From assembly GCA_973895155.1 (NCBI GenBank), contig OZ316895.1, forward strand, positions 19,204,122 to 19,234,702: a stretch of DNA of 30,581 nucleotides. Reading direction: 5' to 3'. Under the pieces are notes generated by a model. The model saw only the letters and a list, made by a program, of their open reading frames with translations. It ran no database searches and was not told the origin of the DNA. Positions 1 through 28,972 of this stretch are shown piece after piece. Positions within the stretch are counted from its first letter, which is position 1; the number at the start of each line of letters is the position of its first letter. The position numbers and the translations under genes were made by a program. The stretch is from Marsupella aquatica. Its lineage: Eukaryota > Plantae > Marchantiophyta.

Positions 1-2974
1 CACATAGTTGACAAACCCTCTTTTTCCTGTCAATATCCTTCCATCTCCCTTGTTCTACTTCAAGGTGGTGTGAGCTTAGTCTATACTGAGCAATAAGTTG
101 TCTAAGTTGTACTGAGATAGTGCTAGATAAGTATTCTTGTTCTCGATATTTCTTCATGGGGTTCACATCTCTCATGTAGTATTGCTGCCGTGGGCTAGGT
201 TCATGCCAAAGTTTGTGCAAAGCCTTTTGCTCAAGTTTTGCTCTTAGCTTGGTTGGGTGTGTTGGCCATTCATGTTCAGGAAAATCCCAAGCATGGGCCC
301 ACCTGCACACATCTGCATACCACCCTTTAGCTGAAGATGAGCGCAAGGCATGAAAAGGAAATCTGTTTTCCTCCAACTCTCTTACACGCATGATGTATTT
401 GAGTGTGTGGAAGAGTGCCTCCACCTCCAAAGGAAACAAGCCTGCCTCTGCAAGTGTAAGTGCATATGGGGTTTGTGACTTGATCCCAAGCTCCATCTCA
501 AGAAATAGCTTTTGCAGCCCCTCAATCTGTTGCCACCCAGATTTAGACACACCTGCTCCCCAAATTGGTGCTCCATAAAGAATGACTGGTTTCACCAAAG
601 CTCCAAAGAGATGTTTCCTTAACCTCCAAGTGTGTAGACCAGCTCTTTTGCATTTGTTCATGAATGCATAAAAAGCTCTGTACCCATTGGCAGCCCTAGA
701 TTTTACACATGAGGCCCAACTCAAGTTTTGAGAGAACTCCACCCCAAGGTATTTGTAGGTCCTCACAAATTCCACCAGATTCCCTTGGAAGTAGAGCTCT
801 GGATTTTGTCGTGTGCCAATGCCCAAACACTTGGTCTTCTTGAGGTTGACTACCATCCCTGTTGCTTGACAAAACTCCTCCAAGGCATTGAGATGTCTTT
901 GCAAAGCTTCTTGAGCATGAGCAAGTAGGACCACATCATCTGCAAATATAAGAAGTTGGAGGACAAACCTACCCAATTGAGTGCCAACTCCACCATGCTC
1001 CTCCAAAATGTTGTGTAGCTGATCAATGAAGATGCCAAAGAGAGTTGGTGAGAGAGGACAACCTTGGATCACCCCAAGAGTGCTCCAGATTTCTTCAGAG
1101 GTTTCCTTTGAAAGTTTGATGCGCACTTCTTGGTACAATTTAGAAACAGCCAACCTGAGCTCTTCAGGCACTTCCAACTCCACCATCCTATCCCAAAGCT
1201 TGGATCGGGAAACTTTGTCAAAGGCTTTGGAGAAGTCCACAAACAAGCAAAATAATGGTTTATGTGGAGATTTGGCCTTTTCACACAACACCCTCAAGCA
1301 GAGAATGTGATCCATAGTGCTGAATTCTCTCCTAAAACCTGCTTGTGAAGGTGCCCTTTTCATCTCACTCTCCAACCAAGAGCTTAATCTGGCTTCAAGT
1401 AGTCCTCCCAAAACTTTAGCAAAAGTATTGCCTACCATGATGGTTATGTAGTTGTGCACATCGTCCTTGTTGCCTGCCTTGAAGATAGGCACCACTCTTC
1501 TGGTCATCCAAGCTTTAGGTAAACCTAAAGCCATTGCTTGATTCAGCTCATGCACCAAGTTTGTTAGTAAAGAGGGTCCTCCCCACAAAAGAAGCTCCAA
1601 GTTCAGGCCCAACAGATCTTTAGCTTTCCCATGTTGCATGTGGGAAAGATGCACCTTCACCTCCCTCTCTGTAAACTGAATGGTGTCCCCAAGGGGCAAA
1701 GGCATGCCACTAGCATCTGGAAAGAAATACAAGGATGTGACATAGGTTACCAGGTCCTGGTGATCCAAGGGGGGAGTAGTCTTGCCTGATTGCATTCTCT
1801 CCCAAAAACGTTTTGGATGTTTGATGAACTCCTCACATAGTGATTGTTGATGACTCTTCAAGAAGCACCTCTTCTTGTGTTTGATGAAGTTCTTGTACAT
1901 AGTGAATGCCAAAAGTCTCTTTTCCCCTGAATGTGATCTTGCTTGCATCCTTGCTCTAGCACAATCCTCGTCAAACCAAGCCTTCATGTTTTGCTTTCTA
2001 GGGGGTTTGGTGGAGAAAGCAGAGGCTGCTGCTTGTGCTATGACTTCTGAGAGCTCAATCTGATCATCCAGGGTATGGAGAAGATGTTCAAAGTTGGCTT
2101 TGAAGATGACTTCTCTATCAGGGTCTAGAAACAGAGGTTTGGGTACTGGCTTTCTATGCACTTTGTTTGGGATTGTGGTCAGGTCAAGATGGAACAACAA
2201 AGGCAAGTGTGAAGACTCTGGTTGTTGATCAAGTATTTGAAAGTCAACCACTCTAGTGGCAGAGGTAGGTGAGGCAAGAAGGTAATCAATGGTACTACAT
2301 CCTTGTTTAGATCTAAAAGTGTAACCAGATGATTGGGGAAATCTCTCAAGCCCATTCAATATTCTTAGATTACAAGAAGCTCCCAAATGCAAAAAGTGAC
2401 GTGTCATGTCATTTGTTCTGGTGTCAAGAGCCTCTCTCACCCAAGGTATCTCTTCACTACATGATGACCAAGGTAAAGTTCCTAAGTTCTCACTTTCAGT
2501 AAATTGTTCATTAGATACCCTGGCATTAAAGTCCCCCACTATCCATGTCTCCCCTAGTGGTGATATATCATGAATGACTTGGATTAACCTATGAAATGGA
2601 TAATGTGCATCAGCAATTCCCATCTTATAGACATTCATATTAAGGGGAGCAAAGTAGGTGACAATCAGAAATGATGGAGTACCTCTGGTATGAAGTCTCA
2701 CCACCATGAACTGCTTGCTGGGATCTTCATGTTCAATAGAGGTGATGTGTTGAAGTTGATTCTTGGTGTAGACAGCAATGCCTCCAAACCCTCTTCCCCG
2801 TGTGGTCTTCTTCTCATTGAAGATGGATTGTATGCAAGTAAAGCCTTTAATGCTAGGTAGAGCATTTCCCTCATATTCCCAAGTCTCCGTGAAAAGCAAG
2901 ATGTCAAAATTCTCAAACAAAGGTTCCCCTCCAATTGCTGTTTCTATGGAAAGTCCTGAAACATTCCATGCCAT
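1..2974 (-). CDS. LINE ORF2: apurinic-type endonuclease + reverse transcriptase (about 990 codons visible, apparently uninterrupted)
   Basis: Manual translation: (LRV)MAWNVSGL..DILLFTETW (APE); QAGFRREFSTMDHI, FVDFSKAFD, GVIQGCPLSPTLFGIFI and LIFADDVVL (RT, FADD at about 935-946); RLSSHHLEVEQGRW..RVCQLC at the window edge. The ORF track lists nothing in this frame, which fits a frame with no stop before position 1. Confidence 0.93.
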   Translation of the reverse strand, partial: MAWNVSGLSIETAIGGEPLFENFDILLFTETWEYEGNALPSIKGFTCIQSIFNEKKTTRGRGFGGIAVYTKNQLQHITSIEHEDPSKQFMVVRLHTRGTPSFLIVTYFAPLNMNVYKMGIADAHYPFHRLIQVIHDISPLGETWIVGDFNARVSNEQFTESENLGTLPWSSCSEEIPWVREALDTRTNDMTRHFLHLGASCNLRILNGLERFPQSSGYTFRSKQGCSTIDYLLASPTSATRVVDFQILDQQPESSHLPLLFHLDLTTIPNKVHRKPVPKPLFLDPDREVIFKANFEHLLHTLDDQIELSEVIAQAAASAFSTKPPRKQNMKAWFDEDCARARMQARSHSGEKRLLAFTMYKNFIKHKKRCFLKSHQQSLCEEFIKHPKRFWERMQSGKTTPPLDHQDLVTYVTSLYFFPDASGMPLPLGDTIQFTEREVKVHLSHMQHGKAKDLLGLNLELLLWGGPSLLTNLVHELNQAMALGLPKAWMTRRVVPIFKAGNKDDVHNYITIMVGNTFAKVLGGLLEARLSSWLESEMKRAPSQAGFRREFSTMDHILCLRVLCEKAKSPHKPLFCLFVDFSKAFDKVSRSKLWDRMVELEVPEELRLAVSKLYQEVRIKLSKETSEEIWSTLGVIQGCPLSPTLFGIFIDQLHNILEEHGGVGTQLGRFVLQLLIFADDVVLLAHAQEALQRHLNALEEFCQATGMVVNLKKTKCLGIGTRQNPELYFQGNLVEFVRTYKYLGVEFSQNLSWASCVKSRAANGYRAFYAFMNKCKRAGLHTWRLRKHLFGALVKPVILYGAPIWGAGVSKSGWQQIEGLQKLFLEMELGIKSQTPYALTLAEAGLFPLEVEALFHTLKYIMRVRELEENRFPFHALRSSSAKGWYADVCRWAHAWDFPEHEWPTHPTKLRAKLEQKALHKLWHEPSPRQQYYMRDVNPMKKYREQEYLSSTISVQLRQLIAQYRLSSHHLEVEQGRWKDIDRKKRVCQLC

Positions 2975-2995
2975 GACTCTCAAGGTCCCAATCCA

Positions 2996-3764
2996 TCATT
3001 TAGAAACAACTCTCTTCTTATTGGTAACAACAGCTTGTCCATTGCGCAAGTAGGCTACCAATCCTTGGTCTTTGGCTACCCTCACCTTCTCAAGCTCAAT
3101 TTTCCTTGCTTGGACTTGTGTGGGAGTCAGATCATCATCCAACCAAATCCTTAGCCCTTTAAGCATGCTCCTGTTAGCCATCACTCTAGCTTTCTCGGAT
3201 TCAGCTGCAAACTTCACCAAGATTGGACGTGGAAGGTCCCCCTTCTTTTGCCCAATCCTATATGCTTGCAAAATGATAGGGTCATGCACTTTCATCTGAG
3301 ATTGGAAGAATGAAATTGCTACCTTCTTGGTGTCTTCCTTCTCCTCCTCAACAAGGCCTGATATTTTGCAGTTGCTGACTCTTGCATGCTGGTTCTTGTG
3401 TTCTTCTTCTAGTGCTCTCCTCTCCTCCTCCTTGGCTTGGACAAATTCCATATGTGATTGTTTTGCAGCCTGTGCAAAGGTTTTGAGCTTCTCCTCAATC
3501 TCCCCTACAGCAATGTATCACTGATTTCTCTGGGCACATACTCTTCTCCATGTCTCCAAAACACGATGCAAGCAATGAGAGTTGCTTACCATTCTCCTGA
3601 GTTTGAGATCGAAGATCACTAATCAACCTCTTTTGCTTGACATTCTCATTCTTTAGCTCCGTCACCTCCTTGCTGAGCGTGGTAATCTCAATTGCGGAGT
3701 TTTCAGCCACAACTAAGATTTTCTCAAGCAAAGCCTTGAGATGGGCAATCTCCTCCGTTGCCAT
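2996..3764 (-). pseudogene. LINE ORF1 (coiled-coil + L1-type RRM/CTD-like, consensus about 256 aa), frameshifted near 3512
   Basis: ORFs 3495-3767 and 2996-3451 join. Copy B reads CAT GAG GCT where copy A has CAT T GCT (net -2). The motif PRPILVKF..LKGLRIWLDDDLT is typical of this ORF1 type. Confidence 0.88.
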
Positions 3765-3771
3765 CACAAAG

Positions 3772-3849
3772 CTGAAACTGTTGTTAGAATGTACTCTTAG
3801 ACGACAAATAGAAATTGGGAGCAGTAGAGGATGTCAGTTGCAGCTCTAC
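3772..3849 (-). other. 78-bp GT-AG intron in the LINE 5'UTR
   Basis: Minus strand reads caaag|GTAGAG...CTAACaacagtttcAG|ctttgtgATG. Copy B reads caaag|ctttgtgATG, so exactly this segment is missing there. Confidence 0.8.
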
Positions 3850-4167
3850 CTTTGCCAGTGATACACTCTCGCTGTTTGCAACACTCTGCCAAAATCTGAG
3901 CTCAAACTGCAGCCGATTGCCCTTCCAACTCGAAGTGAAATTTCGCCCCAAGCTCAGAATCCCGAAACTAGACACGTAGCAGATCGCGCATGCTAAAGTG
4001 CATACCAAACGATGTTGGTTGCAGCTCTAACTTTGCCAGTGATACATTCTCGCTGTTTCCAATGCTCTGGCAAAGTCTGAGCTTAAACCGCAGCCAATTT
4101 CCCTTCCAACTCGAAGTGAAATTTCGCCCCATGCTCAGAATTGCGAAACTGGAGACGTAACAGATCG
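3829..4167 (-). repeat. About 1.9 tandem 181-bp monomers in the 5'UTR of LINE copy A
   Basis: Unit CGATCTGTTACGTCTCCAGTTTCGC...GCACTTTAGCATGCG recurs at 181-bp spacing; same unit as in copy B. Confidence 0.93.
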
Positions 4168-4569
4168 ACCTGTCCTTGTACAAGTCGACCTCCCTCTATT
4201 CATGAACGTCTTTCACCTTCAGTGAACTCTACAATTATCACTCAAAACCAAATCTGATTGATGAAGCAATCACCAGATTGCCACATCGGCGAATGTAATC
4301 CCGTCAAGATAGTTCTTCTTGAGTAGAAAGAGAAGAAAAAGACTTACTTTGCTTCCCAGACAAGACTGATCCATCTTTGGATGTGTCCTTCACCGGCATC
4401 TTCCAAGGTCTCCTCAATCTACTCCGGTCGACAATGGCAGCTACACCAAGAACAGCTTTCTCCATTGCCTCACATCCGCCAGCCTTTGCTTCTGCAGGAG
4501 CTAATTTGGACTCTGTAATGTACGACTCTGGTATCAAGCCTCAATTTATCATATGAAAGGCTGCCTTCT

Positions 4570-6698
4570 CTATTGTGTCAAATGTAGTGCCCATTTGTCT
4601 GATTCTAAATACCATGGACAGTGAAGGACTTCCCACTCACTCATCTTCCTTGGAGCCTCCACTCCCTCACATGGGTACATCGAGTACTCTCCATATTTAA
4701 CGGAGGTTGGATCCTCTTTCACCCCTACTATCCAAGGCAAGAAGCAAGCAGGATAGGACCACCAATATGTTTTGTCAGCAACTTCTCTATCCACAAAAAA
4801 ACCATATGTATATCGCTTTGCCCTCCTCCAAAAAAGTGAGATGTCAATCTTCTCACCCGACTTTGGTGGCCAAATCTGTTTGAAAAAATGAGATTTCACT
4901 CTCGTTTGGAAATCTTCAAAGTCCTCCTCTATGTCAAGGATCAGCGATGGCTTTGTCTTCTCAGACAAAGTAAGGATCCTTGCATCTGGAATAGTTGGGA
5001 TCAACTCTGAAATAATCTCAGACATGAGCAAAGAACAAATTGACTTGACCTGCTCCCATACAGCCCATCGGTGAAGCCAAAGTTTTGTTTCGCTGTCCGA
5101 GAATTGACCAGGGTGGAAGTACTTCTTGCAAAGCTCAGGTCTGCATTGTGCCTTGAGTAGTACACATCTGAGCTGCGGAGTCAACAAAGAGACACTCGTA
5201 AATAGCCTCGCACGATCGAGACCACATGACACATTACCCCTTCCTTTATCGTCTGTTCGTTGGGCCTCCTTCCTCTCATGTTTGCAGTAGATGTGCATCT
5301 CAACACACTTCTGGAAAAAGTCACCAAACTCAGGATTCAGGAGAGGTCCAATCTTTGGCACCTTCACATTCCAATCTGCTAGTTGCTCCTTCATCATGTC
5401 TTTCATAGCCATGTCTTGCGCAGCTTTTGAAAGAGGTTCTCCTTGCGCTTCTTTCAATTGGAACTTCTTCTTCAAATCTTCCATCTGCGCTGCAATATTA
5501 GCAGCAGACAGAATGTACGTGCAGGCATTGAGTGTCATGTTCTTCGAATACCAAGCCAGTTTCCTGATATTTGCCATCTTTTGCTGGAAAAGTTTGTAGT
5601 TGGCTGCATCAATGATATCTTTGTATACAGAAAGGTCATTGCTGAGCACCTTCTGGACTCGCTCTGCTTCGAGGACCCAAGAATTCTCAACATGACATTG
5701 AGTCAACTTGAACCAAAGAAACAGGTCAGCGAGATCGCTAACAAGAGGAACTAAAACAATTTTATATACAATTCACTGCTTGAAGGAAAAGAAACAAACC
5801 TATTCAATGCATGCATTGCCGACTCAATCTGCACAAATGAGTTCTTGTCACCCTTGAAAATTTGGCAAACAACTTGAGGATGATATTTGACATCATGTGG
5901 ATTCTCGTCCGCAAGCTACATCCATTAGTAGAGACGATGATTTCCATCAAAAACACAGAACATTTTGTCTTTCAAAATTTTGAAAGCTTCGTGAGAATCA
6001 CATTTTCTCTCAAATTCTTCATTCTAAAGAATCCACATGTCATCCCACGACTCTCGAATCACATCGTCGCACATCTGGACATGGCCATCTTTGTCGGTCA
6101 TTTGTACGTAAAATCGAGGCGCATCCTCGATGTATCCCCGCATCCGGAATTCATTCTTGAGTGTCTCGATTGCAGTCAAGTTTTTTTGCAAGGACCAAAC
6201 GATCTGCATGTTTCGCATTCTGCAAAGGGGAATCCTCGGAGGAGCGAGGGGGAATCCAAATTTGTCATTTCCAAATGGGAAACGATGGTGATTGATGACA
6301 ACAAAATAGGGTTCTGAAGCTCCAGATTGAAACGTAGGATTCACAACATCTACTTGGTTCACCATCTTCGGTCTCCTCGATGTTTTCAATCCCGCCTAGA
6401 GTGCCTTCTTGTTTGCTGTGGACCTTGTCTCCCTTTGGCTTGACTCGACTGACTTGAACGATCCTATTGATGACAAGCTCTCGGGTGAAGACAATGGCTC
6501 CATCAGCGGGTCCGTGAAGTGATAAGGGTACGAACAGGTCAAGGTCAAGGGTGACATGCTTTGCAAACGTAAAGAAACCCGAGAATCGATCATGCAGTCA
6601 AAGATAGAATTGTACCCTCGTCTGTTGCTTTCACCTGAATGCAGCGCCCGGTCATGAAAAGAGATACAGATATTCTGTACGACTCTCCTCACAATCAT
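4570..6698 (-). pseudogene. Intron-containing gene with a ParB/sulfiredoxin-like domain (VFDGNHRL); several premature stops; possible extra 3' coding at 4304-4537
   Basis: One frame runs 6698 to 5800 through stops at 6396, 6024 and about 5925 and 5916, reading ..KDKMFCVFDGNHRLY*WM*..YHPQVVCQIF..AMHALN (DGNHR at 5948-5934). An intron with donor at 5799 and acceptor at 5738 or about 5708 leads into the 378-aa ORF. Confidence 0.65.
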
Positions 6699-7178
6699 TT
6701 TTTAGACACCGTCAGGTATACATGTACTTCCGGAAATACGAAGAACCGAACTCACGACTGAAAGAAAAGTCTCTAATAACAGAGAGACATGTGTCCTGTC
6801 CTGTACCGTACCATTGACATATAGGTACCCGTTGACCAATTCCAACGGATATAAACGGTCATAATGGTCACTTACGAGAAACTATTTTTGCTAGCAACAT
6901 CGCTAGCCAAAAACTGGTCACTAAATCCATGAGCTCGTGAAGGTTGTTTGGTACGTTTTTGAACCATTTTACATGGTGATTGAGCTAGCGATCTTGCTAG
7001 CTTTATCATTCCGTAAATAGTTTCATATAAGACAAAATAATGGTCAGGTAACGGGAATAAGAGGCATTTATTAAATAAATACGTTGAGTCAAACACCAAC
7101 ACGAGCACGTTTCCTCATATGTATTTGGAGAAAGAAGAGAGCAAAGTATCTCACATTTGAGGATTGTTGTAGACTGTA

Positions 7179-9795
7179 ATGTCCAAAACTGTTAGCATGT
7201 CTTCTTTGGGGTCGAAGGTTGTGATCGAGAGAAAGAAGACGGGTGATGTTGTTGTTTTGGATGTTCTGGAGAATAATGTTATCTCTATGAAGGAGTCTTT
7301 CCTCTCATCGAGGTTTGGGCTTTTGGAAGATGATTTCATCTGGAAGTTGTTCCTTCTTTACTCTCGGAATGGATCCAAAAGTCACGAGGTGCCGGATAAT
7401 GGTTCAGGAATATTGCCAGAGAGAGCTTGGGACCTAAAGTGTGGTTCAGCAACAGAGCTTGTCTCTTGTAAGGATGACATTGCACATATCAATGTTTCAG
7501 ATCCAGAATTGCCGACTTGCCCGTCACTTGCAGTACCCAAAATTATCTACATCTCCCCTGAGAGTGTGGGTTGGGATCTCTCTTCTGTGTCGACGAAGTC
7601 TTCTGAGAAAGCCATTTTTGAAGCAGCGAGTCAAAACGAGTTTCAATCTCAGCTAGTTCTTTATCGAGTTAGTGCATATGATGCCTTCCTCAATATTACT
7701 GGGTCAAGCGAGTTGGCAAATTTCCGGAGGGGAAACGATTGGAAGGAGATTCAAGTGCAGACTTTGCCCACTTCATACAACGAAAACTGTGTTTTTGAGC
7801 TTCCTCCAATCGAAGGTCAATTTCGCCGAGGATATGGTCTTCAGGATATGGATAGGGATAATGACGGCTACCCATGGACAAGACTTCTCACAACTTCAGC
7901 TAATCTCAAACCTCGCAACCACTGGTCTGTGTCAAAAGTCAGATGTGCCGGTGTACTTGAATGTCAAAATCTGGTCTGTAGAAAGTTGAAGCACACCGGT
8001 TCAAAAAATGACTCTTCCTTCCGAGAAAAGGGACAATTTACTGAGCCATTTTCATCTTGGTGAGCTTGTGGAGGAAGGAGGGTTGGTGTGCGGATTCTGT
8101 GAGGAGAGGCCTCTCTGCATCCGCGAATGTCCGGCTAAACTTTTGTACGTCTATCCTAAGCCGTCTCTTGAGTCAAATGTTGTGAAACATATGTCTCGAT
8201 TGGCTGTTCATATGGGTTCCCATGACCACGTTGTTTGGAAAGGGAAATCTCGATTGGCAAAAAAGCAGGCGAAGGAGATAGTTTCTGGTGTTCATAAAGC
8301 AAATCCCGTGTGTATGTCAGGGCATGTTCTTAACAAGTCTATAGGAAACCTGGTTTCTCTTTTGCATCCAGAGTCTTCTTTAGAACTATCGAAAGAAGAA
8401 GAGAGAGAGATTTGGGAATCGATGAAGGTTGTGTCCACTGTTGAGAAATTCCAGGCCATATTCCAGAGCGTGAAAATGGATAACCCAAAAAAAGGTGAGT
8501 TGGATTCTCTTCGTGAGATGCAAGCCCGGAATAACTTTCCTTACGTTCAGAGGTACCTTTTCCCTAGCCAGGGGAGCAAGACCGATAGGGCTCATGTCTT
8601 CAAAATGAGTACCAATGGCCCAGGTTCTGGTGTCGATATTCTCAGGCAGATGAGGAGTGGAGGTGAGCTGGAAGGAGCATGGGTCAGTTCTGATGTAATG
8701 CGGAGAATAAGCACTGGGTGGCTGACATTCAGCGCCCATGTGTACGACCATAATTACAGGTCCCTTTGTACCATCTTCACTTGTGAGCTTCGTGCGGAGG
8801 ACTCCTTATCTCTCGAAACCGCATGGAGATATATGATTGAAGTTGCCTCTGATCATGACGTGCATGACCCACTCATTGGAGGATTTATTGCCGATAATGC
8901 TGAGGCTGGATGGATCGCCATTCGGAATGTTTTTTTGGAGGTGTCCGTCACCCAGAGAAGGAGCACAGTGACGCCTTTCACTTTGCTCAATCTCTTTGTC
9001 GTCACACATTGGAGGGTATTTGGGAAGATCGTCATCGGGAGCACTATAAATTGTGGGAAAGGCTGAGAATAGCACCAACATATGTTCAGGCATACCGAGT
9101 TGCTAACGAAATCCATCGTTGGTGGAAGGAAGGAAACTGCTATGCTAGGAAATTGAAATCTCTCCAAGGATGGATATCTTGGTGGGTCATGAGGTCCAGG
9201 CAGTGGGGGAACTTCATCCGCGTTGTAAGTGTCCTATTTCCTTTCTCTTTGACGTCATTGTTTTTTTGCTAGCGACCTCGCTGGCATATCAGGTCCGTTT
9301 CTGACTGTGGACTTTTTCACAGATGCAAACCGCAATGGAGTCAGCCTTGATGCCAAATTGTACTGGAGCGGAATCAGTCCATGCATCCATGAGATCCTGC
9401 CAAATGAAGAAACTAGTGGGATTGATTGAAGCATCTGAGGTGGACCAGAATCGTACTGCGGGGAAAAATTGTTGCTTTTACTGCCTATAGTGAAGGTGTT
9501 CACAGAGGCCAGGGGCTGACCATTTTGGAATTAGCATATAGGAACGCCGATGCTATGGGATCAATGGATGCTTACAAAAAGGCAGCAAATCTTTTGCTTG
9601 AGTCTTCAGCTAAGTATGAATTCTATAGAACAGTACCATTACATGGCGATATCCGAACAACATCCACAAAGAGGAAAGGGAAAGCTTCAGCTACAATCCA
9701 CGAGAATGACTCCCACAGACATGACAAAGTGTCACGCACAACAACTTCTCCTTCAGGTCTAAAAAGGCGTAATCTCTATCCTGAATTCCGCTTCG
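7179..9795 (+). pseudogene. Mutator-like (MULE-type DDE) transposase with GCM-like Zn DNA-binding domain, 5' part
   Basis: DGYPW..VRCAGVLEC...C..CGFC..ECPAK..HMGSHDH is GCM/WRKY-like. WVSSDVMRR (D1), GFIADNAEAGWIAIRNVF..DAFHF (D2 plus the CxxH-equivalent) and PNCTGAESVHAS (E, about 9371) form the triad. Intron gtaagt..cacag at 9225-9322. Frameshifts near 8020, 8935 and 9460. Confidence 0.75.
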
Positions 9796-9799
9796 TCAA

Positions 9800-10950
9800 T
9801 GTTTCGGAGCTACTTGGGAAGCTCAGAATTAAGGCTATTATGGGCCTGTGGGATGAGGCAACCCACTCTTGGAGACCGTTAACAGAAAGGTGGCACAAAC
9901 TACGTGGGTTTGACCTGGCTTACCGGGACCGCAGCAGGCTCTTTCTTCAAAAGATACGGGACCAAGCAAACTGTGACTGGGGATATAAACCAGGTGCAAG
10001 AATGTGGCGCTGGGCTGATGATCAGAGGTCTTCAACGTATTTTAAAATACCCAATCATCGCATTTACCAGATGCTGAGGCCAAAAGGGGCTGATTATCAG
10101 AGATGGAACAGGATATGGGGCTCAGAGTACACGGAGACACAATGGATGAAATGCTAGGCAAATCTATGGCGATCTGATCTTTCTACAAGGGCTAAAACCT
10201 TCATCTGGAGAATTATTGTGGGAGGTCTCTTCACGGGCTCCCGAGCTCTTACCATCGGGGCGGACTGGGGATCTGCTCCTTTTGCTTGGAACACCTGGAG
10301 ACGATCCCCCACCTTTTCTTTCACTGTCCATTTGCGTCCACATGCTGGAGTTTTGGGCTTGAAGTGGGACAGGGCTTTTTGTTCAGTTATGGACATGGTA
10401 TGCTGGATCTACTGGAGGCTTTTGTCGGACGAGCACATACCCACACTACTAGACTATTTCTAACGTATAAGCTACTATGGGCTCTATGGCTAGCACGGAA
10501 TGAACAGGTTTTAAAAAAACTGAATAAACGTGCTTTTGATTTTAAACTTGTGCTTTCAGAAACTGTTTCCAACCTGTTTGCTGTCAGCAGACGTTTCCCG
10601 CAGAGTAGGAAGTATGACAGACTGCAAAGAGCAAGGGATTGGCTGAACGCAGAACGACTGAGATTAAACTATAGAAATGACTTTAGGATTGTTCACTCTC
10701 AGAGACATAGGGACCAGGTTTAGAACAAAGTTCAGAAGATTATGCTGGTAATAGCACAAGGGTGATTGAGCATCAGGAAGATTGCTCCTTATGCTTGGAA
10801 TGGCACTGTTTATTGGATTGATGAGGTGGTTGTCTAGGACCATAGATTTTGACAACCACCCTTGTCGGGATGTGTATATAATATTCTGTCTGTGATGGAA
10901 CATTCCCTGTTTGCTCCCCCCCGCCGTGGGGTTTTTGCGGCTTATTTTAT
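9800..10950 (+). mobile_element. 5'-truncated L1-clade LINE fragment (zf-RVT C-terminus + 3'UTR) inserted in the transposase gene
   Basis: W..LWRSDLSTRAKTFIWRII..C..ETIPHLFFHCPFA..W..LLWALWLARN is the typical C-terminus of plant L1 ORF2. TGG-to-TAG change at 10155 and a frameshift near 10275. Boundaries are approximate. Confidence 0.8.
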
Positions 10951-10953
10951 TTT

Positions 10954-13107
10954 TGTCACGCGATTGACATGGGTCTTAACACCAAAAACGTCACTATGGG
11001 TGCCAAAACCATCTCCTTGTACCTGAGGATCACGAAGGGATGTTGTGAAGGCTGGTAAACACCAGTTTATGCCCTTAACACCAGACTATCATAGCAAGAC
11101 TCCGTCACACATCACCCAAGCTCAATCCCTAAGAACCAAGGTTGGGAATCAGATCCGTGCTCATGATAGTTTTGGTGATAAGGGGCCTTCATATTGGGCC
11201 CGTACACACAGGGCCTAGCGCTACGGTGCGCATATGTCTATACGTATGCTTACTATAATAGGTATATTTCTATTCCGCCGCCGGAATGTACCAATCAACC
11301 AGTGACTCCTGACTGATTCCCGGCTTAGGGACTTCTAAGCCATTGCCCCACCACTCTGCCATTCCACTCTCAGCAATCAGAGCTGTGACAGCCTTCACCC
11401 AACCCACTTCAATGCACCCGGTACACCTCTCAGTGGCACTGCTAGTCCCATCAAATACTCAGATTGCCTCGCACACACACATATCCATGAGAGAAATGAG
11501 GCCTGAGAGGAAAACTCAATTAGATTCAAAGATGTGCACAATAGTTCACTGAGAACACTTGATCCGAACACTAGGCTCGAAGGCTGTCTCCTCCAAATTG
11601 CGACGTGGTTGCCCTGCAAGCTCAATCCTGAACCTGAGCCCGGCTCACTCCAGATTGCGATGGTAGATTGGACTTGAACCAATCCCGTACTTGCCTTGCA
11701 AACTCAATCCTGAACTCAACCTCCTTCACTGCACTTCATTCTTGGGGCACATACAGATCTCACACCTCCATTTCAGAATGTCAAGTTACGCATGCACAGT
11801 TGACTCGACTTCAAAGCTGGTACCAAGCCTAACGGCGATCTACCCCAGATTGCAATGAGGCCCGACCTCATGCTTGCCCTACAAGCTCAGCCCTGGCCAT
11901 AAATCCCTTAGTGCTCTCCACCAGACAAAGGCCGGGACTCCCCATGGATCACGTAGCCTTGCCAGACTAAATTGTAAATGCTCCTCTTGCTGCCCCTCAA
12001 TCAGTATCTCAGCCTCCCTAATGTGTTCACCAAAAATCACATTGAAATCCTCCCCATAGTTTACAATCACCAACACATCACCTATCACCAAGGCTCTATA
12101 TCGGGGGAAAAGAACCCAGTTGTGTTGCCTACTAGAAAGAGCCACAATCCAGCTTGCAAACCTGGCCAACTGTTGCTGTGAAGCGTGGCTGATTACTCCC
12201 TGAGTAATAGCACAACCAAGCTCTCCCCAACACACAGCTTCCAAGCCCAGCCTTCCTTGCATAGAGCTCCTCCCTACTGCTCAGTCTACGTGAGATCACA
12301 CAACTGAAGTTCCCCCCCTGCCTCTACCGGGGGGCTGCTCTATATACTCTCATACTGAGCCCAAATGGGTGGATACTACGCTGCTGGAGCCCCATCCCAG
12401 CCCTAACAGAGCCGCCACTATCTCTAACTATTGAACCCTAACTCGCAACTTTATTTCTCTCTCGAATTGGCTATGTACTTCGGATTTGGCCCTCCTCCAT
12501 GGTTTTTGCGAGCTTGCGCCTCCTCTCCCGATTTCTCTATTCAACCATTTGCTGCGTGGATAGAAGCGTTGGAAGCGGCTTGAGCTCCTCTTTCCAAAGA
12601 GGTCAATTATAGCCGATTTGGGCAAATACAGAGAAAGTTGTGCCCCCGCAACCGAGAGGGGTACTCATTGCTATGCTAACCCGAGTTACATAGCTAACCT
12701 GAGTTCGGCTAACCTAGCTATCCTATCTAACCCGAGTAGAGCTAACCCGTGGTCTCGGGTTAGGCCGCTACCCGCTATCCGCTAACCTAGGCTAAGCTGA
12801 GCCCAAACCCGAACTTGCCTATGCTAACCCGAGCCTGAGTTTAGGCTAACCCAAGTTCAGTCTAACCCTGGCTCAATCTAACCCGAACCCGGGTTAAGCC
12901 TAAGCTGAAGCCATGCTGACCTGAGCTAAGCTGAAGCTATGTTGACCTGAGCTAAGCTGAAGCCGTGCTTACATGAGCTAAGCTGAAGCCGTGTTTACAT
13001 GAGCTAAACTGAAGTCGTGCTCACATAAGCTAAGCCGTGGCCGAGCTTAGGTTAACCCGAAACCGAAGCCGGATCCGCTAATTCCGGCCACAAGTTAACC
13101 CGTCACA
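10954..13107 (-). mobile_element. Probable LTR or LTR-retrotransposon fragment
   Basis: Ends TGTCACG...CGTCACA form an imperfect inverted pair. The minus-strand start TGTGACG..GGCCGGAAT resembles the one at 17848. Internal tandem repeats and a TATA-like site near 12340. No TSD found. Confidence 0.5.
12899..13036 (+). repeat. 26-bp tandem repeat, about 5 copies (GCTAAGCTGAAGCCRTGYTKACMTGA), preceded by degenerate GCTAACCCGAG repeats (12670-12898)
   Basis: Units read directly in the sequence. Confidence 0.85.
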
Positions 13108-13420
13108 CTAATCAGGCCATATCTTCCTTAATACACCTCCGTTTCCCGAGTGTTTTATATAGATTTTACTTGCCTTGACCAGATCTTTCCAATGCTCTTT
13201 ACAGATCCGGATTCGGTGATGTATTGAAAGAGATATGGTCGCCAACCATCCACGACATAGCTTTTATTTCCCTACTCAACGCCATGATTGCCCTTATTCT
13301 TGCCATATTGCTAATTGTTATGCAATATCAATAGTTACTCCTTGTATACAGCAACCTACTTACTCAGATTATAGAATAAGGACCATGTCATCGGCGTCAC
13401 AATTTTATAAAAACCCCCTT

Positions 13421-14513
13421 TCAAGGGATGTTTTGGAGACTTCTACGGATCCAGAAATAGCAAAGAATACAACTTTGGCAAACCCTGTCGGAGGTTGCTA
13501 TGCTGGAGTTATCCATCTTTTGGATGACGATGGTGATGATGCAAGTCATAATGTCAATGATACCAAGCAGATGGGGACTCAACCTTTGTGTGATGTCGGG
13601 GACGACCATCGGGATGCCCCCCCAAAGGATCCCTTCCATCCGAGAGGTTGATGTTCCTTATGGGACCTGGCATCTCAGGCGGAGTGGTAGAGGTGCTGGA
13701 CCTGTTTGCAACGGGTCGGTTGACCAAAGCGTTTTTGGAAGAGATGAATGTAGAAATCTCATCAAGGAGACTGGATGGAAGTCCGCACAAGGGGGAATTG
13801 TTGGAGTCGCCATTCACGGGTTGCGATTATCGTCTCCACATCGCCAGTTGTTATACTTCTGTCCTAACAATAAGTGTCACAAGAGCCGAGGACGCAGAAC
13901 TCTAGCTCAACTACCCCCCCCACCCGAGTCGCTCAAGGTTCAGCGTGGGACTTGCCTCTCCCATCCCGAGATAGATTTTCTGCTGGGATTAGGATACCAG
14001 ATCAGTGGACTGTCCTATGTGGATGCAAATCAAGTTGGGGAGTTCCCATCCCCAATCGGGTCAACCTACAAATTGATGTTAACTCATTCCCCGAACGAAT
14101 CGATCTAACTAATGTGGACCGTTGGTTGAAAACCCAAAATGGTAAGGGTGCACGACAGCGTTTAAGCAATACTCCAGAGTTGCTCAAGCGCATCGTTTTT
14201 GCTACACAATTCACATGAGAGTTGTTGGAAATGAGAAGGTACTACCGGAAATGGATGGGGTTGGAGATACTTGATCGCCACTCACGAGACTGATTCACAA
14301 GTTCCGCACACATATTGGGTGCAAATCTGTTGTTTCCCTTCGTGTTCTTGTGAAGACTTTTATAAGAGGCATACACAAGGGAAACCATACATGTCTTGTA
14401 AACATCTGCTGTGGGTGTATTTAAACAAGTTTTCACTCAACCTGGAGAAGGACAACCTTGTCAAACAGCCGATTCTGACTATTGGGGAAGTGAGGTGTTT
14501 AATTCCGTTATAG
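13421..14513 (+). pseudogene. Probable 3' part of the transposase gene with a SWIM zinc finger
   Basis: YWVQICCFPSCSCEDF..PYMSCKHLLWVY matches SWIM CxC-n-CxH. Overlapping frameshifted ORFs start at 13235, 13500, 13874 and 14271, on the same strand as 7179-9795. Confidence 0.72.
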
Positions 14514-14835
14514 ATAGGGGACTAGTCATTTATTGGAGATGCTAATTATAGGGTGGTGGGATGGATTACTCGAGTTTGTGGTTTCACAAATATCAATCTA
14601 TTTTCACCGAGTGAACCATAATGTTAGCAAGGTCCATAATGTTATATTATATGGTGGTTGTGTTCGTTGTTTATGGCTAGCGATCTCTCTAGTCTTAGGA
14701 AGTGTGCAACAAACGGACAGAAACATCGACTTCCAGCCGTGTTCACCTATGGACAAGGATGTATGTAGTTCAGGGTTTGATGATCAAAATGACGCCAGTT
14801 CTTTGCTAGCGAGATCGCTAGTATGATCAACGGAG

Positions 14836-14863
14836 TTTAGGGTTTAGGGTTTAGGGTTTAGGG
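14836..14863 (+). repeat. Interstitial plant telomeric repeat (TTTAGGG)4
   Basis: Four perfect units. Confidence 0.92.
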
Positions 14864-15237
14864 TCAAAAGTTTATTGTAGAGTGATAGGATGTGTTCTTG
14901 GGAGGGAATTGTTCCCTCAAGTTGTTGAGGTAATACTCTGCCAAATTGATTATCTAAGATGAACCCATCAAAGATTAATCTGAAATGTAGAGTCAGTCCT
15001 ATACTAGCGATATCACTAGTCTGGGAAGGGTTCATGTGTGTCTCCAAAATAAACGACATATTCAAGGAAAGTGGGGCTCAAATAAACATACTATGGACAA
15101 AATGTCATTCAAGGACAACACAGAGAAAGGAAAGGAACACACAAACTTTACTTCTCATACATATTGAAAGTACATGAGGACATGTCATTCGCTTGAAACT
15201 ACAAAAATTTCAGTAAACCCACAACCTGACTCTCCGC

Positions 15238-15830
15238 TCAGGGGCTGGCCGCCTTCCATGCATCGGAGTCAGTGTCTGACTCCGAATCGTAATCCAAAGA
15301 GGCAAGGCGTTCCTTGGTCCAGTAGTCATGGATCTCCCTATCAATCCAATATTGCTCCTCTTCTGCAAGCCTCTTCCTCTTTGATACGGCCTTGCGCTGT
15401 GTGGTATCCACCTTCGGCTTTGGTGGAGACTTTGCTGCTGGACCTGACTTTGGAGGAGTCGGTGTTCTCCTCAATGATGATGATGATCCAATAGATTGAC
15501 CGAGTGCGGTTGGGACACTGCTATCTGCGGAGACCTTCACAGTGTCGGCATTGGGTTTCTGCTTCGGCCGAGAGTCATCTTCTAGAGGGCCATCCGTCGC
15601 CGGGTTGTAACAACGGATCTCAAGTTGCCATTTCCCCTAAGGAGGATTGCTTTGAACCCTTGACATTTCTCTGCACTTACAAAACCCAAACAATGATTAA
15701 AAAGAACGACATTCACCAAATGGAAACACTTTTCATGATGAAATACGATGAATGTCATGCCTTGTCGGAGAGTTCTTCCCTGAAAACAGCTCAGAACCAT
15801 AGACCCGCGCATACCTGAACTGGATCTGGT
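15238..15830 (-). pseudogene. Small spliced gene of unknown function with basic then acidic C-terminus, convergent on the transposase
   Basis: Exon from acceptor tgcag at about 15672 reads EMSRVQSNPP*GKWQLEIRCY...KRKRLAEEEQYW..DYDSESDTDSDAW. The upstream exon is uncertain. Confidence 0.4.
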
Positions 15831-16439
15831 GAGCGTTGAGAACTTGGAACACTGATAGCAGTTCCGAATGAAAGAGCTCGAGTCGGACGCGGTGGAAGTG
15901 ATCGGGAGAATGATTCAGAAGACTGGTGGTTTTTGGGTGACTGGCTTTGTTTAAGTGGACGGTTCGCCTTGGGTTTGCCTATGGTTTGAACGGTAATTGT
16001 CCCGTTCACTTGCAAGTGACTTAATTAGTGTCCAAACGGCCTTAATCCTCCTTTCCTTGACAGTAATGACACGTTGATTCTTGTCACATGGGAATTGTGC
16101 AGTACTTTTTTGTTATGGGAATTTTCACATGTGGAAGCATGTACGTGGAGCCCGTACCTCATGTGAGTGGCTCAATGTGTTGGCGTCATTAGACTAGCGA
16201 TTTTGCTGGCCTGAAGAAAATGTCATTTTGACTGATCGAAAATGGATCTAGTGCATTCAAGGGACTAGAAAATACTCATCGTTACGCATTTCTTGTGTCA
16301 TTTTTGTGTCATTATTTAATGATCAAACAGGGTCTTCATGCTAGTGAGGAAGATCGGACCTTTTTTTGGGCCCCAATACAAGGGGAAATCTTGCCTGTGC
16401 GAGCAAAAATTCTACTGTTTGCTTGCACGTTACAATTAC

Positions 16440-17848
16440 CCGTCAGACAATATAGCTAGCGTCCCATCCAAACTGATGGGACGAGATCCCTTCTCGGACT
16501 CTATCCATACAAGAAGCCTCCATACAGCGATCATCCGTACAGATAGTCTCTGTAAGCAGCCACGCCTTCCAGGAGGGGGTAAAGGGAGGACAAGGTCTTC
16601 CATAGACCTCATTGTTGTTGGATTGAGACCGCAGTCAAAACTGGTGTCGGGGCCGCAACAGTCACCGTGTTGTCTATCGGGGCCGTCTCTCGGGTCCGGA
16701 CTTGTGCGGGCGACGATGTGTTACCCGGCCCATATCGATGTGCCCCTGGTGGTCTCCGGACAAGAGGAGGATGAGCCTCCTTGTCCTCTAAGCTGATGTT
16801 CACCGTATTCACCACGGATCGTACCCAAATGGTTGGTGCGACTGGTGGTGGAGAGCGGCTTGAATGAGGCTGAGGCGGCAGTTGTGATGGTGCCAATGAG
16901 TTGGCTACGGGTGTATGGTTGAAGTGTTGACTCGATTGTATTAGGATTCAAAAGGTCAAAGGGGAATCCAAGTGATGTTAGGATTGACGACTTGATCGTA
17001 TTCAGACTACCAAATCGATAGTCAAGGAAGGACTGAACTTTGGCAGGTATATGGTCAAAGTGATGACACTATAAGTCCACCATGCCCGGGATCATGAAGA
17101 CCTCGTCCGGAAGTTGAAGGAGCGCTTCTTCAAAGCCGAGGTACTTTGAACCATTGAAGAAGATTTTGGTGATCTTGTCATCTCGACAAAATTTTCTCTG
17201 AAAGGGAAGGTTGAGGTTGTTGTTGTAGTGAGAGCGCCCGGCCAAACAGATGAGTCATTCGTACTCTCTTTTAGCTTTGTACCTGTGTGGGTTGAATTTG
17301 GCAAGCATTTTTGCTAGATGATTACCAATGGACAGAAATTGAAGCCAAAAGCAAATGGCCAAACTAGACATAATTGTGACAGACATATGGTGAGGTGTGG
17401 TGGATAGCTAAGGAAGGAATGGACAAGCTAGGATCAAAGTTGGCGCAAGGAGTGAAGTGCCAATACTAAGCAAGGGAATGGCTTGCCTTTTATACCCTGG
17501 TGGGACGTCGGTCGATTGGCCCCTGCCCCTTTATGATAGGCCAAGTTCTTCACGCTTATAGTGTACCGGCCACTCCGCAGGTCTGAATCAAGGCGTGTTA
17601 GAGAGCCGCTTCTTGATCCGTTATACGGACCCAAGGTAGACGGCCATAACAAACTCATAACCCGGCGGTATGGGTGGCGCTCTGCCGCCAACCCAAGCGT
17701 AAATGCTCTTTATTGACTAATTTGGTCATGATTACTAACTATTTTAGTGTTGCTATGCAAATAACTATGGACTACTAAGTCCGTAGCGTGTGTGATCAGC
17801 ATGGATTAGGCCGGATTACTCATTTCCGGCCGTGTTGGCGGCGTCACA
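16440..17848 (-). mobile_element. LTR-retrotransposon 5' fragment (LTR about 17848-17329, PBS-like site, decayed internal leader/gag-like sequence)
   Basis: Minus strand TGTGACG...TATAAAA...TCCA is followed by TTGGTAATCATCTAGC. The left boundary is approximate. Confidence 0.5.
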
Positions 17849-17874
17849 AGTTAGAATTCTAGAAATCCATAATA

Positions 17875-20300
17875 TTGTCTGATTGCACACCGTCTACAAT
17901 TCTTGCTGAGCACTCCATGAGATCAAACACCATCAACAGCACAATGGTGTTTCAGTCTTGCTTGAAGGATACAGGTGTCCATGCAAGACGGCAGTTGTTG
18001 AATGTGGAAGACCAAACAAACCCAAACATGGCGACAACAAAACAAATGCTCAAGACAACCAAAAATTTCAGGTAAGAAATGTGATTGCTTTTTGTGCATT
18101 TCTCTACCAGAGTAATTCTATTTTGGATTCAGATGGTCTCAGTCCGACACGATTTGTCATAGAGTACTGGAATTTTTGGAATGTTTGGTTCAAGTTTTGT
18201 TTTTGATTGAGACCATCTGAATCCAAAACTATTATCGCACATTAGAATCCTATTTGTTTCCAATGCTTGAGTTGGGGATAACTGACTAGCTATCCTTTTG
18301 GATTGTAGGATTGGTTGGCTCTGGCAAGAATGTCTATGGGAGGAAGGACTTGCAAAATGTATACTGGCTACTTTTTGCGGACAAAAATCTTTTTGAGTTG
18401 TGGCGTTTAGTATGTGAGATGTGGTTGCATGGGAAACTTTATGATGGAGCTGGGATGGAAGGAAATGACAAGTCCAAAAAAGCAATTACCGTTGCCATGT
18501 TTCATCCCTTTGATGGTGAGTTGATCTCATAGAGAGACATCACAAAAATCCTGACACAGGTGAAGTATTGTTGAAGAAAGATGCCACAAATAAATCTGAC
18601 ATCCCCTCAATAGAAGAGCTTGCAAAGGATGTGAAAAAAATGAGGAAGCTCAAGTCTCTTATTGAAGAATACTACTTTAGCAAGGATGCAAGGAATTTTC
18701 CATTGGATACCGACTAGAATAAAGTAATAGAGGTTCTGCCATTGTTGAGTGTTGATGCAGAATTCAACAGATGCACAAGAGCGGTTGGTGAAGTCTTTTT
18801 TTTAAATCTGTTGAAGCCAAATCATACTAGGGAGAGTGCAATCTTGCCAATAGCTTTGGTGATGTGCCTTGATGACATTTACTGCCAGAAGTTTGGTGGA
18901 GGGACACATTCTCAGAGCCAGCTTGTGGTTCACGTTCTTTAGTGACAATCTAATGAAAATAATAGATCCAGCAGCATTAGAAGAATCACCTCCAACGTGC
19001 TCACTTGCCACTTCATCAAAAGCAGTGGACAAAAGCAAAAGTTTTGGTCCTTCTACAATACATTGTGGAGCTACCACAAAATCTTACAATTGTTGTAGCC
19101 ATAATTGTTCATCCAAGGCCTCTTACAATGAATGTCCTAAGTTCACTTTGAAAATTGGGACAAGAGAAATCTCTCACCATTCACATTGAGTATGGGAGTT
19201 ATTCTCAAGAGGATCAACCGCACCCGCTTGATTCATGTTGGGGGTGCGGAATTGAAGAAGTTATATTTGCAGGAATTTCTCAAGATGAAAATGTCAATTG
19301 GAATGATATTTTCAAACCCAATCACCCAAAGCCAAAATTATTTTTTGGTTCAAAAGATACTAATTTTGAGGTCAGCAAGATTAACACAGGGAAGGCGAAC
19401 GTTGACACAGACGACATGTCAAAACCCAAAGATCTAAAAATGATGCTGACCCCACAAGAGGCGACCAAGGTTTTGCACATGGCCCCTCAATTGGAGATAG
19501 GTGGTGCTCGCAGTGGTTGGGTGAATCCACATGCCAAACCCACGCGGATGATATAGAGGATTATTCAATCCTTGTCAGAAGCTGGAGACTTGATATTTGA
19601 TTTTTTCTCGGGTGGTCAAGTGATGATGACAGCGTTCTTGTTGCAGCCCAAATGCTTGGTTTATTGTGACTCTCAAAATGAGAGACAATTTGTGGAAGCG
19701 TATGCTTCATTCCTTTGCGAGAGGGTCCCCACAATCAAGGATAACTGGGATCCTTGTGGTGGAAGTTCTAGACAATGGAAACCCACTATTGTGGATGTTG
19801 CTGCCAAAGATGAATCAGTTGATAATTCCAGAGAAGAGGATGCTAAGTCAGTCAAAGATGATGGGGCATCGGAGGTGGCATATGTAAAGAATTTGGATGA
19901 TGGTGTAGGTCAAAGTGAAAGCATAGAACCCTATGATGTTGATGATAATATTGGACTTCACCACGCCCTTCATCAGGTCCAGATGACATCCATGTGGAAC
20001 CCTATGAAGTCAAGGTTGATGCCAACTTGGACAAGGATGGTCTCAATCCAAATGCGCTGCAACGACAAACAAACAAAATTGGAGAATCGATTGACATTGA
20101 TACATTTGAAAACCGTTCTTCAACCAATTTGGTCATTGATGGTGGAGAGAAGCAGGTCAATTTGAATGAAGCTAACACCCAAGAATTTATTCTCGTGAAG
20201 GCTATTGAAGTACATGAGATTCCCATCACCCCAGAAGCCCATGCATCAACGACTATTGACAACCAGGCAGGTGCTTCAATTTTTCCTGACACTCGATCTT
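17875..20300 (+). pseudogene. Degenerate spliced gene with a C-terminal N6-adenine/N4-cytosine DNA-methyltransferase-like motif and an acidic tail
   Basis: ORFs 19155-19556 and 19572-20165 share a frame across one TAG: VNPHAKPTRMI*RIIQSLSEAGDLIFDFFSGGQVMMTAFLL, resembling HPxxKP..L.ERLI..S..GD.VLDPFxGxG. Intron gtaag at about 18071 to ttgtag at 18308. No DPPY/SPPY motif found. Confidence 0.55.
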
Positions 20301-20532
20301 TTCAACTTTTGATGACAAATTGGTTTTTGTTTGTTCACACTCGGGAAGTCCCATTGTCCTTCCGCTCTCAAAGAAAAAAGGGAATAGAGTTGGATCAAAA
20401 GGATGGAGGTCACTTGAACGTGATGCATGATGTTACGTGTGGAAAAGGGGGCCAAATAGAGGCCAAGAAAACCGCAACATTTTGCCAAAGGCGTCCAATG
20501 CGTAGCAAATCGGTTTAGGGGTCATTTTTGTA

Positions 20533-21400
20533 TTAGTGAAGTGAGGTGACAAGTTCATTGTCAAGTTCCGCCTCAAGACGTAAGCTACATATACGGTGCT
20601 TCACAGCCCAAGGAATCTTATTGCTATTGAGGTCCAACACACTATGCCTAAATTGTGACTTCCAAATTTTTGTTACACATCTCTTACTAAGTTGATCATA
20701 AGTAATCTCATTTTTTGCCTTGTCTCTCTTTGGAGAGTTTAGAAGAAGATAACAATGAATGTCACTTGCATGTGACGGTGTCTCAAGACATGGCCAAAGA
20801 ATTGTTAGAAGAAAAATTTCTCCACTATTGGCATGCGTGTAGGGCATTGGAAATAGTCCGGTCATGTCTGGGTTGGCAAATGCCTTCAAAGGGGAGTCAT
20901 CCACAAGGAGTGTGTTGGTTTTATCATATAGATTTCCAAATGCACTCCATACCACCCAAAAATCCTTGAATAGCACATTTGCCTTCCCATTTGTAATGTC
21001 ACGCCTTTGAATGCCCGTGTCAAAGGCTTCCACTTGTGTGAATACAAACTTCAGTTTCAACCGCTCCTCAAGAGTGAACATCATGTTCAACATTTTCACT
21101 ATTCGCAACATCCCAACACATGTCCAAATTGCAACGTCAAACCGGTCAAAAACAAACTTTAGAAACTCATGGAGCCCTGGCCTCTCTGTATACATGCGAC
21201 TAATTCCATTTGCACTTTCCAATGCTCAAACAGTCGGGTAAGCGTGATCGGACCAAGATTGGAAAAATCCAATTCTTCTGGTATTGGAAATCAGGTTTCA
21301 ATTCAAAAACAATGGCAAAATCATGTCCAATTTTATTAGTATGGCATCATGCGGTTCGAGCACTTTGGAATCGATATGCAATGTGCAATGTCATAAATTG
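20533..21400 (-). pseudogene. NIF/FCP1-like (HAD superfamily, CTD-phosphatase-type) gene, degenerate
   Basis: RPGLHEFLKFVFDRFDVAIWT..KDFWVVW..NTLLVDDSPLKAFANP..GLFP are NIF-domain motifs. The N-terminal DxDx motif is not intact. Confidence 0.72.
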
Positions 21401-26760: not shown

Positions 26761-26781
26761 GTTGTCAACGTAGGCTCCATT

Positions 26782-27644: not shown

Positions 27645-27651
27645 CTTTGTG

Positions 27652-28422: not shown

Positions 28423-28443
28423 TGGATTGGGACCTTGAGAGTC

Positions 28444-28902: not shown

Positions 28903-28972
28903 TTGTCCTCTTCTGAGCAATCTCTTTTGGTTGCTCTTTTCTTTGATTGCATTGTACTTTACTTTTTGTGGC

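Follow-up and report, generated by a model that had tools for sequence, protein, structure and literature searches.

What are the palindromes of 16 bp that recur in a transposon of the liverwort Marsupella aquatica, and which protein, if any, reads them? The locus lies in a stretch of 30,581 bp of contig OZ316895.1 (assembly GCA_973895155.1, positions 19,204,122 to 19,234,702 of the forward strand), which is referred to here as the window and whose numbering is used throughout. The element in it carries three genes, namely a gene for a ParB-like protein (on the minus strand, about 6500 to 4168), a divergent transposase gene (7179-14513, less an intron and an insert) and a convergent third gene (about 15978 to 15238). 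An earlier note on this DNA had proposed that the palindromes are parS-like cis sites for a protein encoded by the element. The reading favored here, to which we give about an even chance on what the sequences suggest, is that they serve a multi-copy, likely Mutator-like transposon as conserved cis sites and are bound by its own ParB-like protein. This accessory protein would bind the palindromes as a dimer and, once bound, would control the expression or the chromatin state of the element. It is the best candidate binder because ParB-family regulators use such sites and because the distribution of the sites mirrors that of the VANC motifs of VANDAL transposons.

The palindrome and its distribution

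The consensus of the sites is the 16-mer CTAGCGAnnTCGCTAG (that is, CTAGCGANNTCGCTAG), with two seven-base arms around a two-base centre (7+2+7), and its fuller form is the 18-mer RCTAGCGA-NN-TCGCTAGY. All eight places named in the earlier note hold the palindrome, with one exact copy, five copies with one mismatch, one with two, at 16194, and one with three, at 5726, so that the claim of at least eight copies of CTAGCGAnnTCGCTAG is true of a consensus only; an exact search of the window for CTAGCGANNTCGCTAG returns the single copy at 14806. The coordinates then given do lead to the sites, seven of the eight pointing one base before the 16-mer.

At up to two mismatches the window contains seven matches (6891, 6985, 9269, 14677, 14806, 15004 and 16194), whereas the chance level is a mean of 0.03 (maximum 1; 100 dinucleotide shuffles) or 0.017 (300 shuffles). 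At up to three mismatches there are nine matches against 0.39 expected, the extra two being those at 5726 and 22876. The match at 22876 is located outside the element, amounts in essence to a single half-site and is not among the 16 best scores of a position weight matrix. This matrix scores the sites at 22-29 bits and no other place in the window above 11.5 bits; it was made from the eight sites and is thus circular for them. The earlier statement that there are no copies elsewhere stands for the long interspersed nuclear element (LINE) at 1-4167 and for the insert in the transposase gene (9799-13427), both of which are empty at up to three mismatches, and has to be qualified for 22876.

On the gene models built here, all eight sites lie in non-coding DNA, which makes up about 27% of the visible element, and the placements described before (ParB-like gene intron, divergent promoter, transposase intron, between the convergent 3' ends and near the end of the element) hold on these new models. 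The 16 half-sites yield RCTAGCGA. Four of the ten mismatches in the seven-base arms are CpG transitions, which match the expected decay of methylated DNA, and we infer this to be their cause.

Palindromes scattered in this way might also be a very small repeat that local duplication or conversion has multiplied, or else hairpins of DNA or RNA, with no dedicated protein. Each window copy can be folded as RNA (-4 to -12 kcal/mol) and seven of the eight copies are imperfect, which would suit such an origin. However, the window copies, dispersed across 10.5 kb, have flanks in common over only about 24-26 bp (69-81% alike), no tandem array lies over any site and an Rfam search gave no match; moreover, three positions of the half-site never vary across the 16 halves, a constancy of sequence that a hairpin does not require. 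This explanation appears improbable to us, and it is taken up again below with the related locus.

Variation of the site among copies and in a related locus

Contigs of four public runs were aligned to positions 3500-18500 of the window. The element is multi-copy, its summed depth being tens to hundreds of times that of exact flank-matching contigs, a ratio that is not a copy number. The ParB-like gene and the transposase are each covered by many contigs in all four runs, and none among the listed contigs spans both.

Variation at the sites was assessed for 14640-15060 in contigs of the runs X2, X3, X5 and X7 (40 of 41 rows; X7 covers the telomere repeat only and X5 is thin), with a variant defined by a share of at least 20%. 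The 39 variable places comprise 37 of 336 flanking bases, one of 48 motif bases and one base in the telomere repeat, which was excluded from the count. At the variable motif base, 15015, the other copies restore the perfect palindrome, at about 99% of the X2 depth. Across the three sites in this segment (14677, 14806 and 15004), 0 of 48 bases drift from the consensus, against the 37 of 336 flanking bases (change away from consensus: Fisher p = 0.005, block permutation p = 0.048; counting 15015: p = 0.03 and p = 0.12, respectively). This conservation gives modest support to the notion that the palindromes are functional sites. In addition, one X5 contig keeps both motif blocks while 95 other bases replace the 152 between them, and one X4 contig has the same joint (14841-14994).

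A single related locus (L001, a 2078-bp contig) emerged from a search by transposase alignment, which gave 95 candidate stretches in metagenome contigs. Its catalytic region is identical at 91 of 143 residues (64%), and a phase-0 intron is common to both loci. Within this intron of L001, the palindrome GCTAGCGC-NN-GCGCTAGC occurs three times (at 1110, 1194 and 1284 of the contig), and it is absent from the exons; 300 shuffles contain zero such palindromes. At half-site position 7 all 16 window halves carry A and all 6 halves of the relative carry C, a symmetric change of both inner positions. Such a fixed symmetric change is as expected for a site that is read by a two-fold symmetric, element-specific protein, and the combination of a fixed palindrome, a free two-base centre and a symmetric switch between families fits a protein of this kind evolving together with its element. 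The idea that the palindromes are cis sites for an element-encoded protein is thus borne out in part, as far as sequence comparison goes: by their confinement to non-coding DNA, by their being kept among copies and by the symmetric change in the homologous intron of the relative.

Duplication and hairpins find some support in the related locus, as its copies share about 26 bp and the middle palindrome centres a nearly perfect 60-bp hairpin (1172-1231 of the contig). On the other side, the core GCTAGCG has been kept between the two loci at 64% protein identity while the remainder of the intron aligns no better than shuffles; when the two introns are aligned locally, the highest-scoring stretch is the motif, at a score of 27 that is within the shuffle range (maximum 32).

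The same switch bears on whether another protein, either the product of the third gene, as a VANC-like small accessory protein, or a host transcription factor, reads the sites. VANDAL elements offer a precedent in which a separate accessory gene is combined with non-coding motifs (Hosaka et al., PMC5735166), and a third gene exists here; a host factor that is tolerant at position 7 could bind both variants. However, the visible product of the third gene is short, mostly of low complexity and without a Pfam match, and a site of a host factor is not expected to switch in all half-sites. We hold this possibility to be quite unlikely.

Further searches for related loci gave none among 66 candidates by transposase alignment in viral contigs, and none among 31 candidates in viral contigs and 4 in prokaryote genomes by alignment of the ParB-like protein. 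Viral contigs were also scanned for GCTAGCGNNNNCGCTAGC, and not one of the 117 stretches obtained encodes a relative of the five query proteins.

The element, its genes and the candidate binding proteins

The features of the element are collected in Table 1. The window copy is dead: all three genes are broken by stops or frameshifts, and the copy has suffered two insertions.

Table 1. Features of the transposon in window coordinates; L001 is the related locus, and X2 and X3 are sequencing runs
Feature	Position	Strand	Remark
ParB-like exon 2 and beyond: helical middle region, no known family	4168..5707	-	frameshift near 4588; LINE cut at 4167
ParB-like intron (predicted)	5708..5799	-	donor GT present; acceptor is AA in this copy
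Palindrome 1, TCAGCGAGATCGCTAA, 3 mismatches	5726..5741		ParB-like gene intron
ParB-like exon 1 (start uncertain): predicted ParB/Srx-fold domain with DGNHR	5800..6515	-	in-frame stops
Palindrome 2, CTAGCAACATCGCTAG	6891..6906		between divergent genes
Palindrome 3, CTAGCGATCTTGCTAG	6985..7000		between divergent genes
Transposase exon 1: beta-grasp N-terminus, Cys/His zinc domain, DVM and ADNA acidic motifs, DAFH	7179..9224	+	frameshifts near 8053 and 8930
Transposase intron, GT-AG, phase 0	9225..9322	+	L001 intron position identical; 5 of 5 homologous open reading frames end there
Palindrome 4, CTAGCGACCTCGCTGG	9269..9284		transposase intron; L001 has three variant copies in this intron
Transposase exon 2, first part, with TGAESVH (candidate third catalytic residue)	9323..9798	+	
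Secondary insertion: LINE 3' fragment and very high-copy repeat	9799..13427		bypassed by contigs of all four runs; without palindromes
Transposase exon 2, second part, ends in CxC...CxH segment	13428..14513	+	contiguous with first part in L001
Palindrome 5, CTAGCGATCTCTCTAG	14677..14692		downstream of transposase stop
Palindrome 6, CTAGCGAGATCGCTAG	14806..14821		sole exact copy
Plant telomere unit TTTAGGG, 4.3 copies	14835..14864	+	separates palindromes 6 and 7; some further copies skip it or have other sequence there
Palindrome 7, CTAGCGATATCACTAG	15004..15019		G at 15015 in other copies gives a perfect palindrome
Third gene (predicted), two exons seen, one in-frame stop	15238..15978	-	convergent on transposase; no Pfam match
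Palindrome 8, CTAGCGATTTTGCTGG	16194..16209		232 bp inside right end
Right end, ...GTTACAATTACCC (that is, ...TTACAATTACCC)	16412..16441	+	13 X3 contigs leave the window at 16441

Exon 1 of the ParB-like gene has 8 close homologues among 85 candidates, and a profile search extended these to 737 clusters; the source organisms of the homologues include the liverwort Riccia sorocarpa and Adiantum, and both these sources and the TTTAGGG repeats indicate a land-plant origin. For one homologue (P0013), whose structure model has a pLDDT of 75, the top 11 rows of a Foldseek search are all ParB, Noc or KorB (best E 7.7e-3), and the top eight rows by VIA are KorB, SerK, archaeal ParB, sulfiredoxin (Srx), PadC, SbnI and Atu1540 (Z 4.9-6.4), the best being KorB (Z 6.4, rmsd 3.1, 95 aligned). 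The gene is thus predicted to have the ParB/Srx fold, the scores being weak and the ranking uniform, and its earlier label as ParB-like agrees with this model-based prediction. The best-known eukaryotic member of this fold is sulfiredoxin. The predicted intron is in keeping with the homologues, as 62 of the 96 homologous open reading frames that reach it stop within three residues of it. Exons 1 and 2 of the window together align to residues 76-661 of a Riccia sorocarpa protein of 1207 residues (P0201; E 1.5e-53), and full-length Riccia sorocarpa members join the ParB-like domain to a C-terminus like that of N6_N4_Mtase, with matches to PF01555 in three proteins (P0201, P0199 and P0202) at E 5e-5 to 9e-6, below the curated cut-off. 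For the middle region, all leads from Atlas are below 0.9 (DUF6551 0.81, DndB 0.77).

The transposase has five homologues at 48-53% identity among 2772 candidates, and the motifs DVM, ADNA and D(A/C)FH are present in all five full homologues. Pfam and PDB sequence searches returned nothing relevant for its placement, and ParB, GCM, MULE and SWIM are unrecognised by Pfam in the open reading frames of the window and in the homologues. Its structure model is poor (pLDDT 45), with a beta-grasp N-terminus that resembles DWNN (Z 8.1); in the listed fold rows the sole transposase is ISCth4 of the IS256/Mutator group (VIA rank 7, Z 7.2, rmsd 2.4, 73 aligned; Foldseek rank 11, E 0.2 for this query model of pLDDT 45). 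The CxC...CxH end is presumably SWIM-like. From the acidic motifs, the ISCth4 row and this presumed SWIM-like end, the transposon is likely, though not proven, to be Mutator-like. The Cys/His zinc domain had been labelled GCM, a label that found no support in Pfam or PDB and that reflects a GCM-like Cys/His pattern only. Two other presumed likenesses, that of GKWQLEIRC in the third gene to an AP2 domain and that of the half-site to the KorB operator, likewise found no support.

The transposase itself, through its Cys/His zinc domain, might bind the palindromes for transactivation or synapsis, in which case the ParB-like gene would be a passenger; we consider this unlikely. The related locus was found by way of its transposase, and the site and the transposase are the only pair shown travelling together. 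Furthermore, on its own a Mutator transposase is able to bind motifs and switch on cognate copies (bioRxiv 10.64898/2026.08.24.746577). However, in that study binding peaked at the terminal inverted repeats, whereas here over 1.4 kb separates seven of the eight sites from the visible end, and two sites are intronic. Copies lacking the transposase, which are indicated by a joint of 7429 to 15388 in X2 and X3, do not decide the matter.

Several points weigh against binding by the ParB-like protein. The test of conservation covers three of the eight sites and mainly two runs, and is borderline after allowing for clustering. The related locus is the sole relative found with non-coding DNA and ties the variant site to the transposase only, which is the chief weakness of this reading; the longer flanks shared by its copies are explained equally well by local duplication. 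Among the fold matches, which are weak, are ATP enzymes (Srx, SerK and SbnI) that do not bind DNA. Among the 139 homologues that cover Box II, this box reads DGNHR in 85, DGxxR in 93 and GERR in one, and the nucleotide used by a ParB/Srx fold cannot be predicted from sequence (PMC12704722). In the middle region, where Pfam found nothing, no DNA-binding domain was recognised, be it a helix-turn-helix (HTH) or another. The catalytic motif of N4/N6 methyltransferases, [DNSH]PP[YFW] (PMC4738411), is replaced by D-[LM]-P-[ST]-G in all four Riccia proteins that have the segment, and the part of the window gene that would match the methyltransferase is not visible because it would lie beyond the LINE cut.

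The right end of the element is placed at 16441 because the 13 X3 contigs depart there into mostly unlike sequence (agreement 0.39, n = 13); the end had been put near 16210, which is where the last site lies. No partner for this end was found within the window because the LINE occupies 1-4167. The 3629 bases within exon 2 are a later insertion because contigs of all four runs join 9798-9805 to 13428-13435, and the insert is bounded by an 11-bp near-duplication (ATGTTTYGGAG). Part of the insert (10850-13427) is a repeat at 10-20 times the depth of the element, with 26-bp tandem units at 12900-13035. The joint of 7429 to 15388 carries telomere-like filler and marks an internally deleted derivative in which the transposase is lost and the promoter sites and the ParB-like gene would stay. 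The string GGTAATTGT occurs exactly twice in the window, inverted, at 15992-16000 and 16432-16440 (at the terminus and 440 bp inside), and this pair is a possible transposase site. The CpG observed/expected ratio is 0.64-0.66 for the element (4168-16441) and 0.19 for the neighbouring LINE, which is compatible with less methylation-driven decay in the element; composition or age could also explain it.

Beyond the right end lie a broken N6_N4_Mtase-like stretch (19527-19670, E 8e-6) and, facing it, an open reading frame for an NIF/FCP1-like phosphatase (20536-21225, E 5e-8); an Adiantum gene model (P0186) combines a ParB-like domain with an NIF domain that matches this frame. The flank 19527-21225 may be a relic of a related cassette, one without palindromes of this type. 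The possibility that the methyltransferase remnant is the tail of the ParB-like gene was rejected, as the remnant lies beyond the right end and on the other strand and matches the Riccia domain at E 0.3-2 only. Other features of the surroundings are a 24-bp inverted repeat at 18121-18228 (96% complementary, 60 bp apart) and two copies of a young LINE (1-4167 and 26778-29035), which has tandem repeats of 181 bp at its 5' end. The second copy is 99% alike and internally deleted, so that most of ORF2 is skipped.

Comparison with known systems

In bacterial ParB/parS, KorB/OB and VirB/virS, as here, a protein with a predicted or known ParB/Srx fold is encoded beside 16-bp or palindromic sites (PMC12704722, PMC11790492, PMC10770331). 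KorB, which exerts long-range repression (PMC11790492), and VirB, an anti-silencing protein (PMC10770331), are ParB-family regulators that, bound to such sites, control distant genes on mobile DNA. There are also differences: the gene considered here is an intron-containing eukaryotic gene, the GERR motif is absent, no HTH was identified, and no ParA was seen among the 24 open reading frames of the window that were scanned, the left part of the element lying outside the window. The term parS-like is apt for the geometry of the palindrome and for nothing beyond it. A bolder proposal, which seems rather unlikely to us, is a ParB/parS-style nuclear switch in liverworts and ferns, in which the protein would load and spread in a nucleotide-dependent manner, its methyltransferase-like tail would mark or shield the element against silencing, and protein and site would co-evolve family by family. 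If true, it would make this protein the first ParB clamp of a eukaryote for which the loading site is defined.

The VANDAL/VANC system is similar in that the elements are of Mutator type and carry family-specific motifs in introns, intergenic DNA and terminal non-coding DNA (Hosaka et al., PMC5735166); here, eight of eight sites are non-coding and a variant is found in one relative. The VANC motifs are 8-9 bases long, are not described as palindromes and multiply in tandem repeats, whereas the sites reported here are dispersed palindromes of 16-18 bp. The function of VANC is backed by chromatin immunoprecipitation (ChIP) and electrophoretic mobility shift assays (EMSA) (PMC5735166). No similarity to VANC was found in this element, the third gene having been scanned against Pfam and no direct comparison with VANC having been made.

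The closest precedents come from algae, and these, like the methyltransferase-like C-terminus of the full-length homologues, were missed by the earlier note. Red algal Plavaka, Mutator and Zisupton elements carry a ParB-like gene, PAG3, whose product has been proposed to bind inverted repeats of the element (Petroll et al., bioRxiv 10.1101/2025.02.11.637652). Both there and here, a eukaryotic DNA transposon combines a ParB-like accessory gene with inverted repeats as putative sites. The red algal elements have tandem arrays beside PAG3, a ParB domain fused to a 2OG oxygenase and a methylase on a separate gene; in the land-plant element, by contrast, single dispersed palindromes of 16-18 bp occur in every non-coding segment, the methyltransferase-like tail is part of the homologues, and the site changes symmetrically between families. 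The two are set apart here by description, not by comparison of repeat sequences. In the brown alga Ectocarpus, Sola1-1_Ec32 has an accessory gene that joins a ParB-like domain to an N4/N6 DNA methyltransferase on the strand opposite to the transposase (Dinatale et al., PMC12477816). This architecture is the same as that of Riccia P0201, and the ParB-like gene described here is also opposite to its transposase; the brown algal element belongs to the Sola superfamily and has no target site named in the passage that describes it, and the comparison is one of architecture only.

Overall, ParB-like accessory genes beside inverted repeats are already published for red and brown algal transposons, and the land-plant variant with a defined site is new. 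Neither the land-plant element nor its dispersed palindromes were found in the literature, which was not searched for the motif string, and the supplements of the algal papers may bear on this claim. The published proposal that ParB-like accessory proteins of algal transposons bind their own element and modify it gains a concrete candidate site and intact-looking homologues in a sequenced liverwort, and the two loci provide a natural specificity pair, with A/T and C/G, respectively, at the inner positions. If the ParB-like protein does bind its own palindromes, plant transposons would have, besides VANDAL/VANC, a second system by which they regulate themselves in a sequence-specific way, one built on a bacterial fold.

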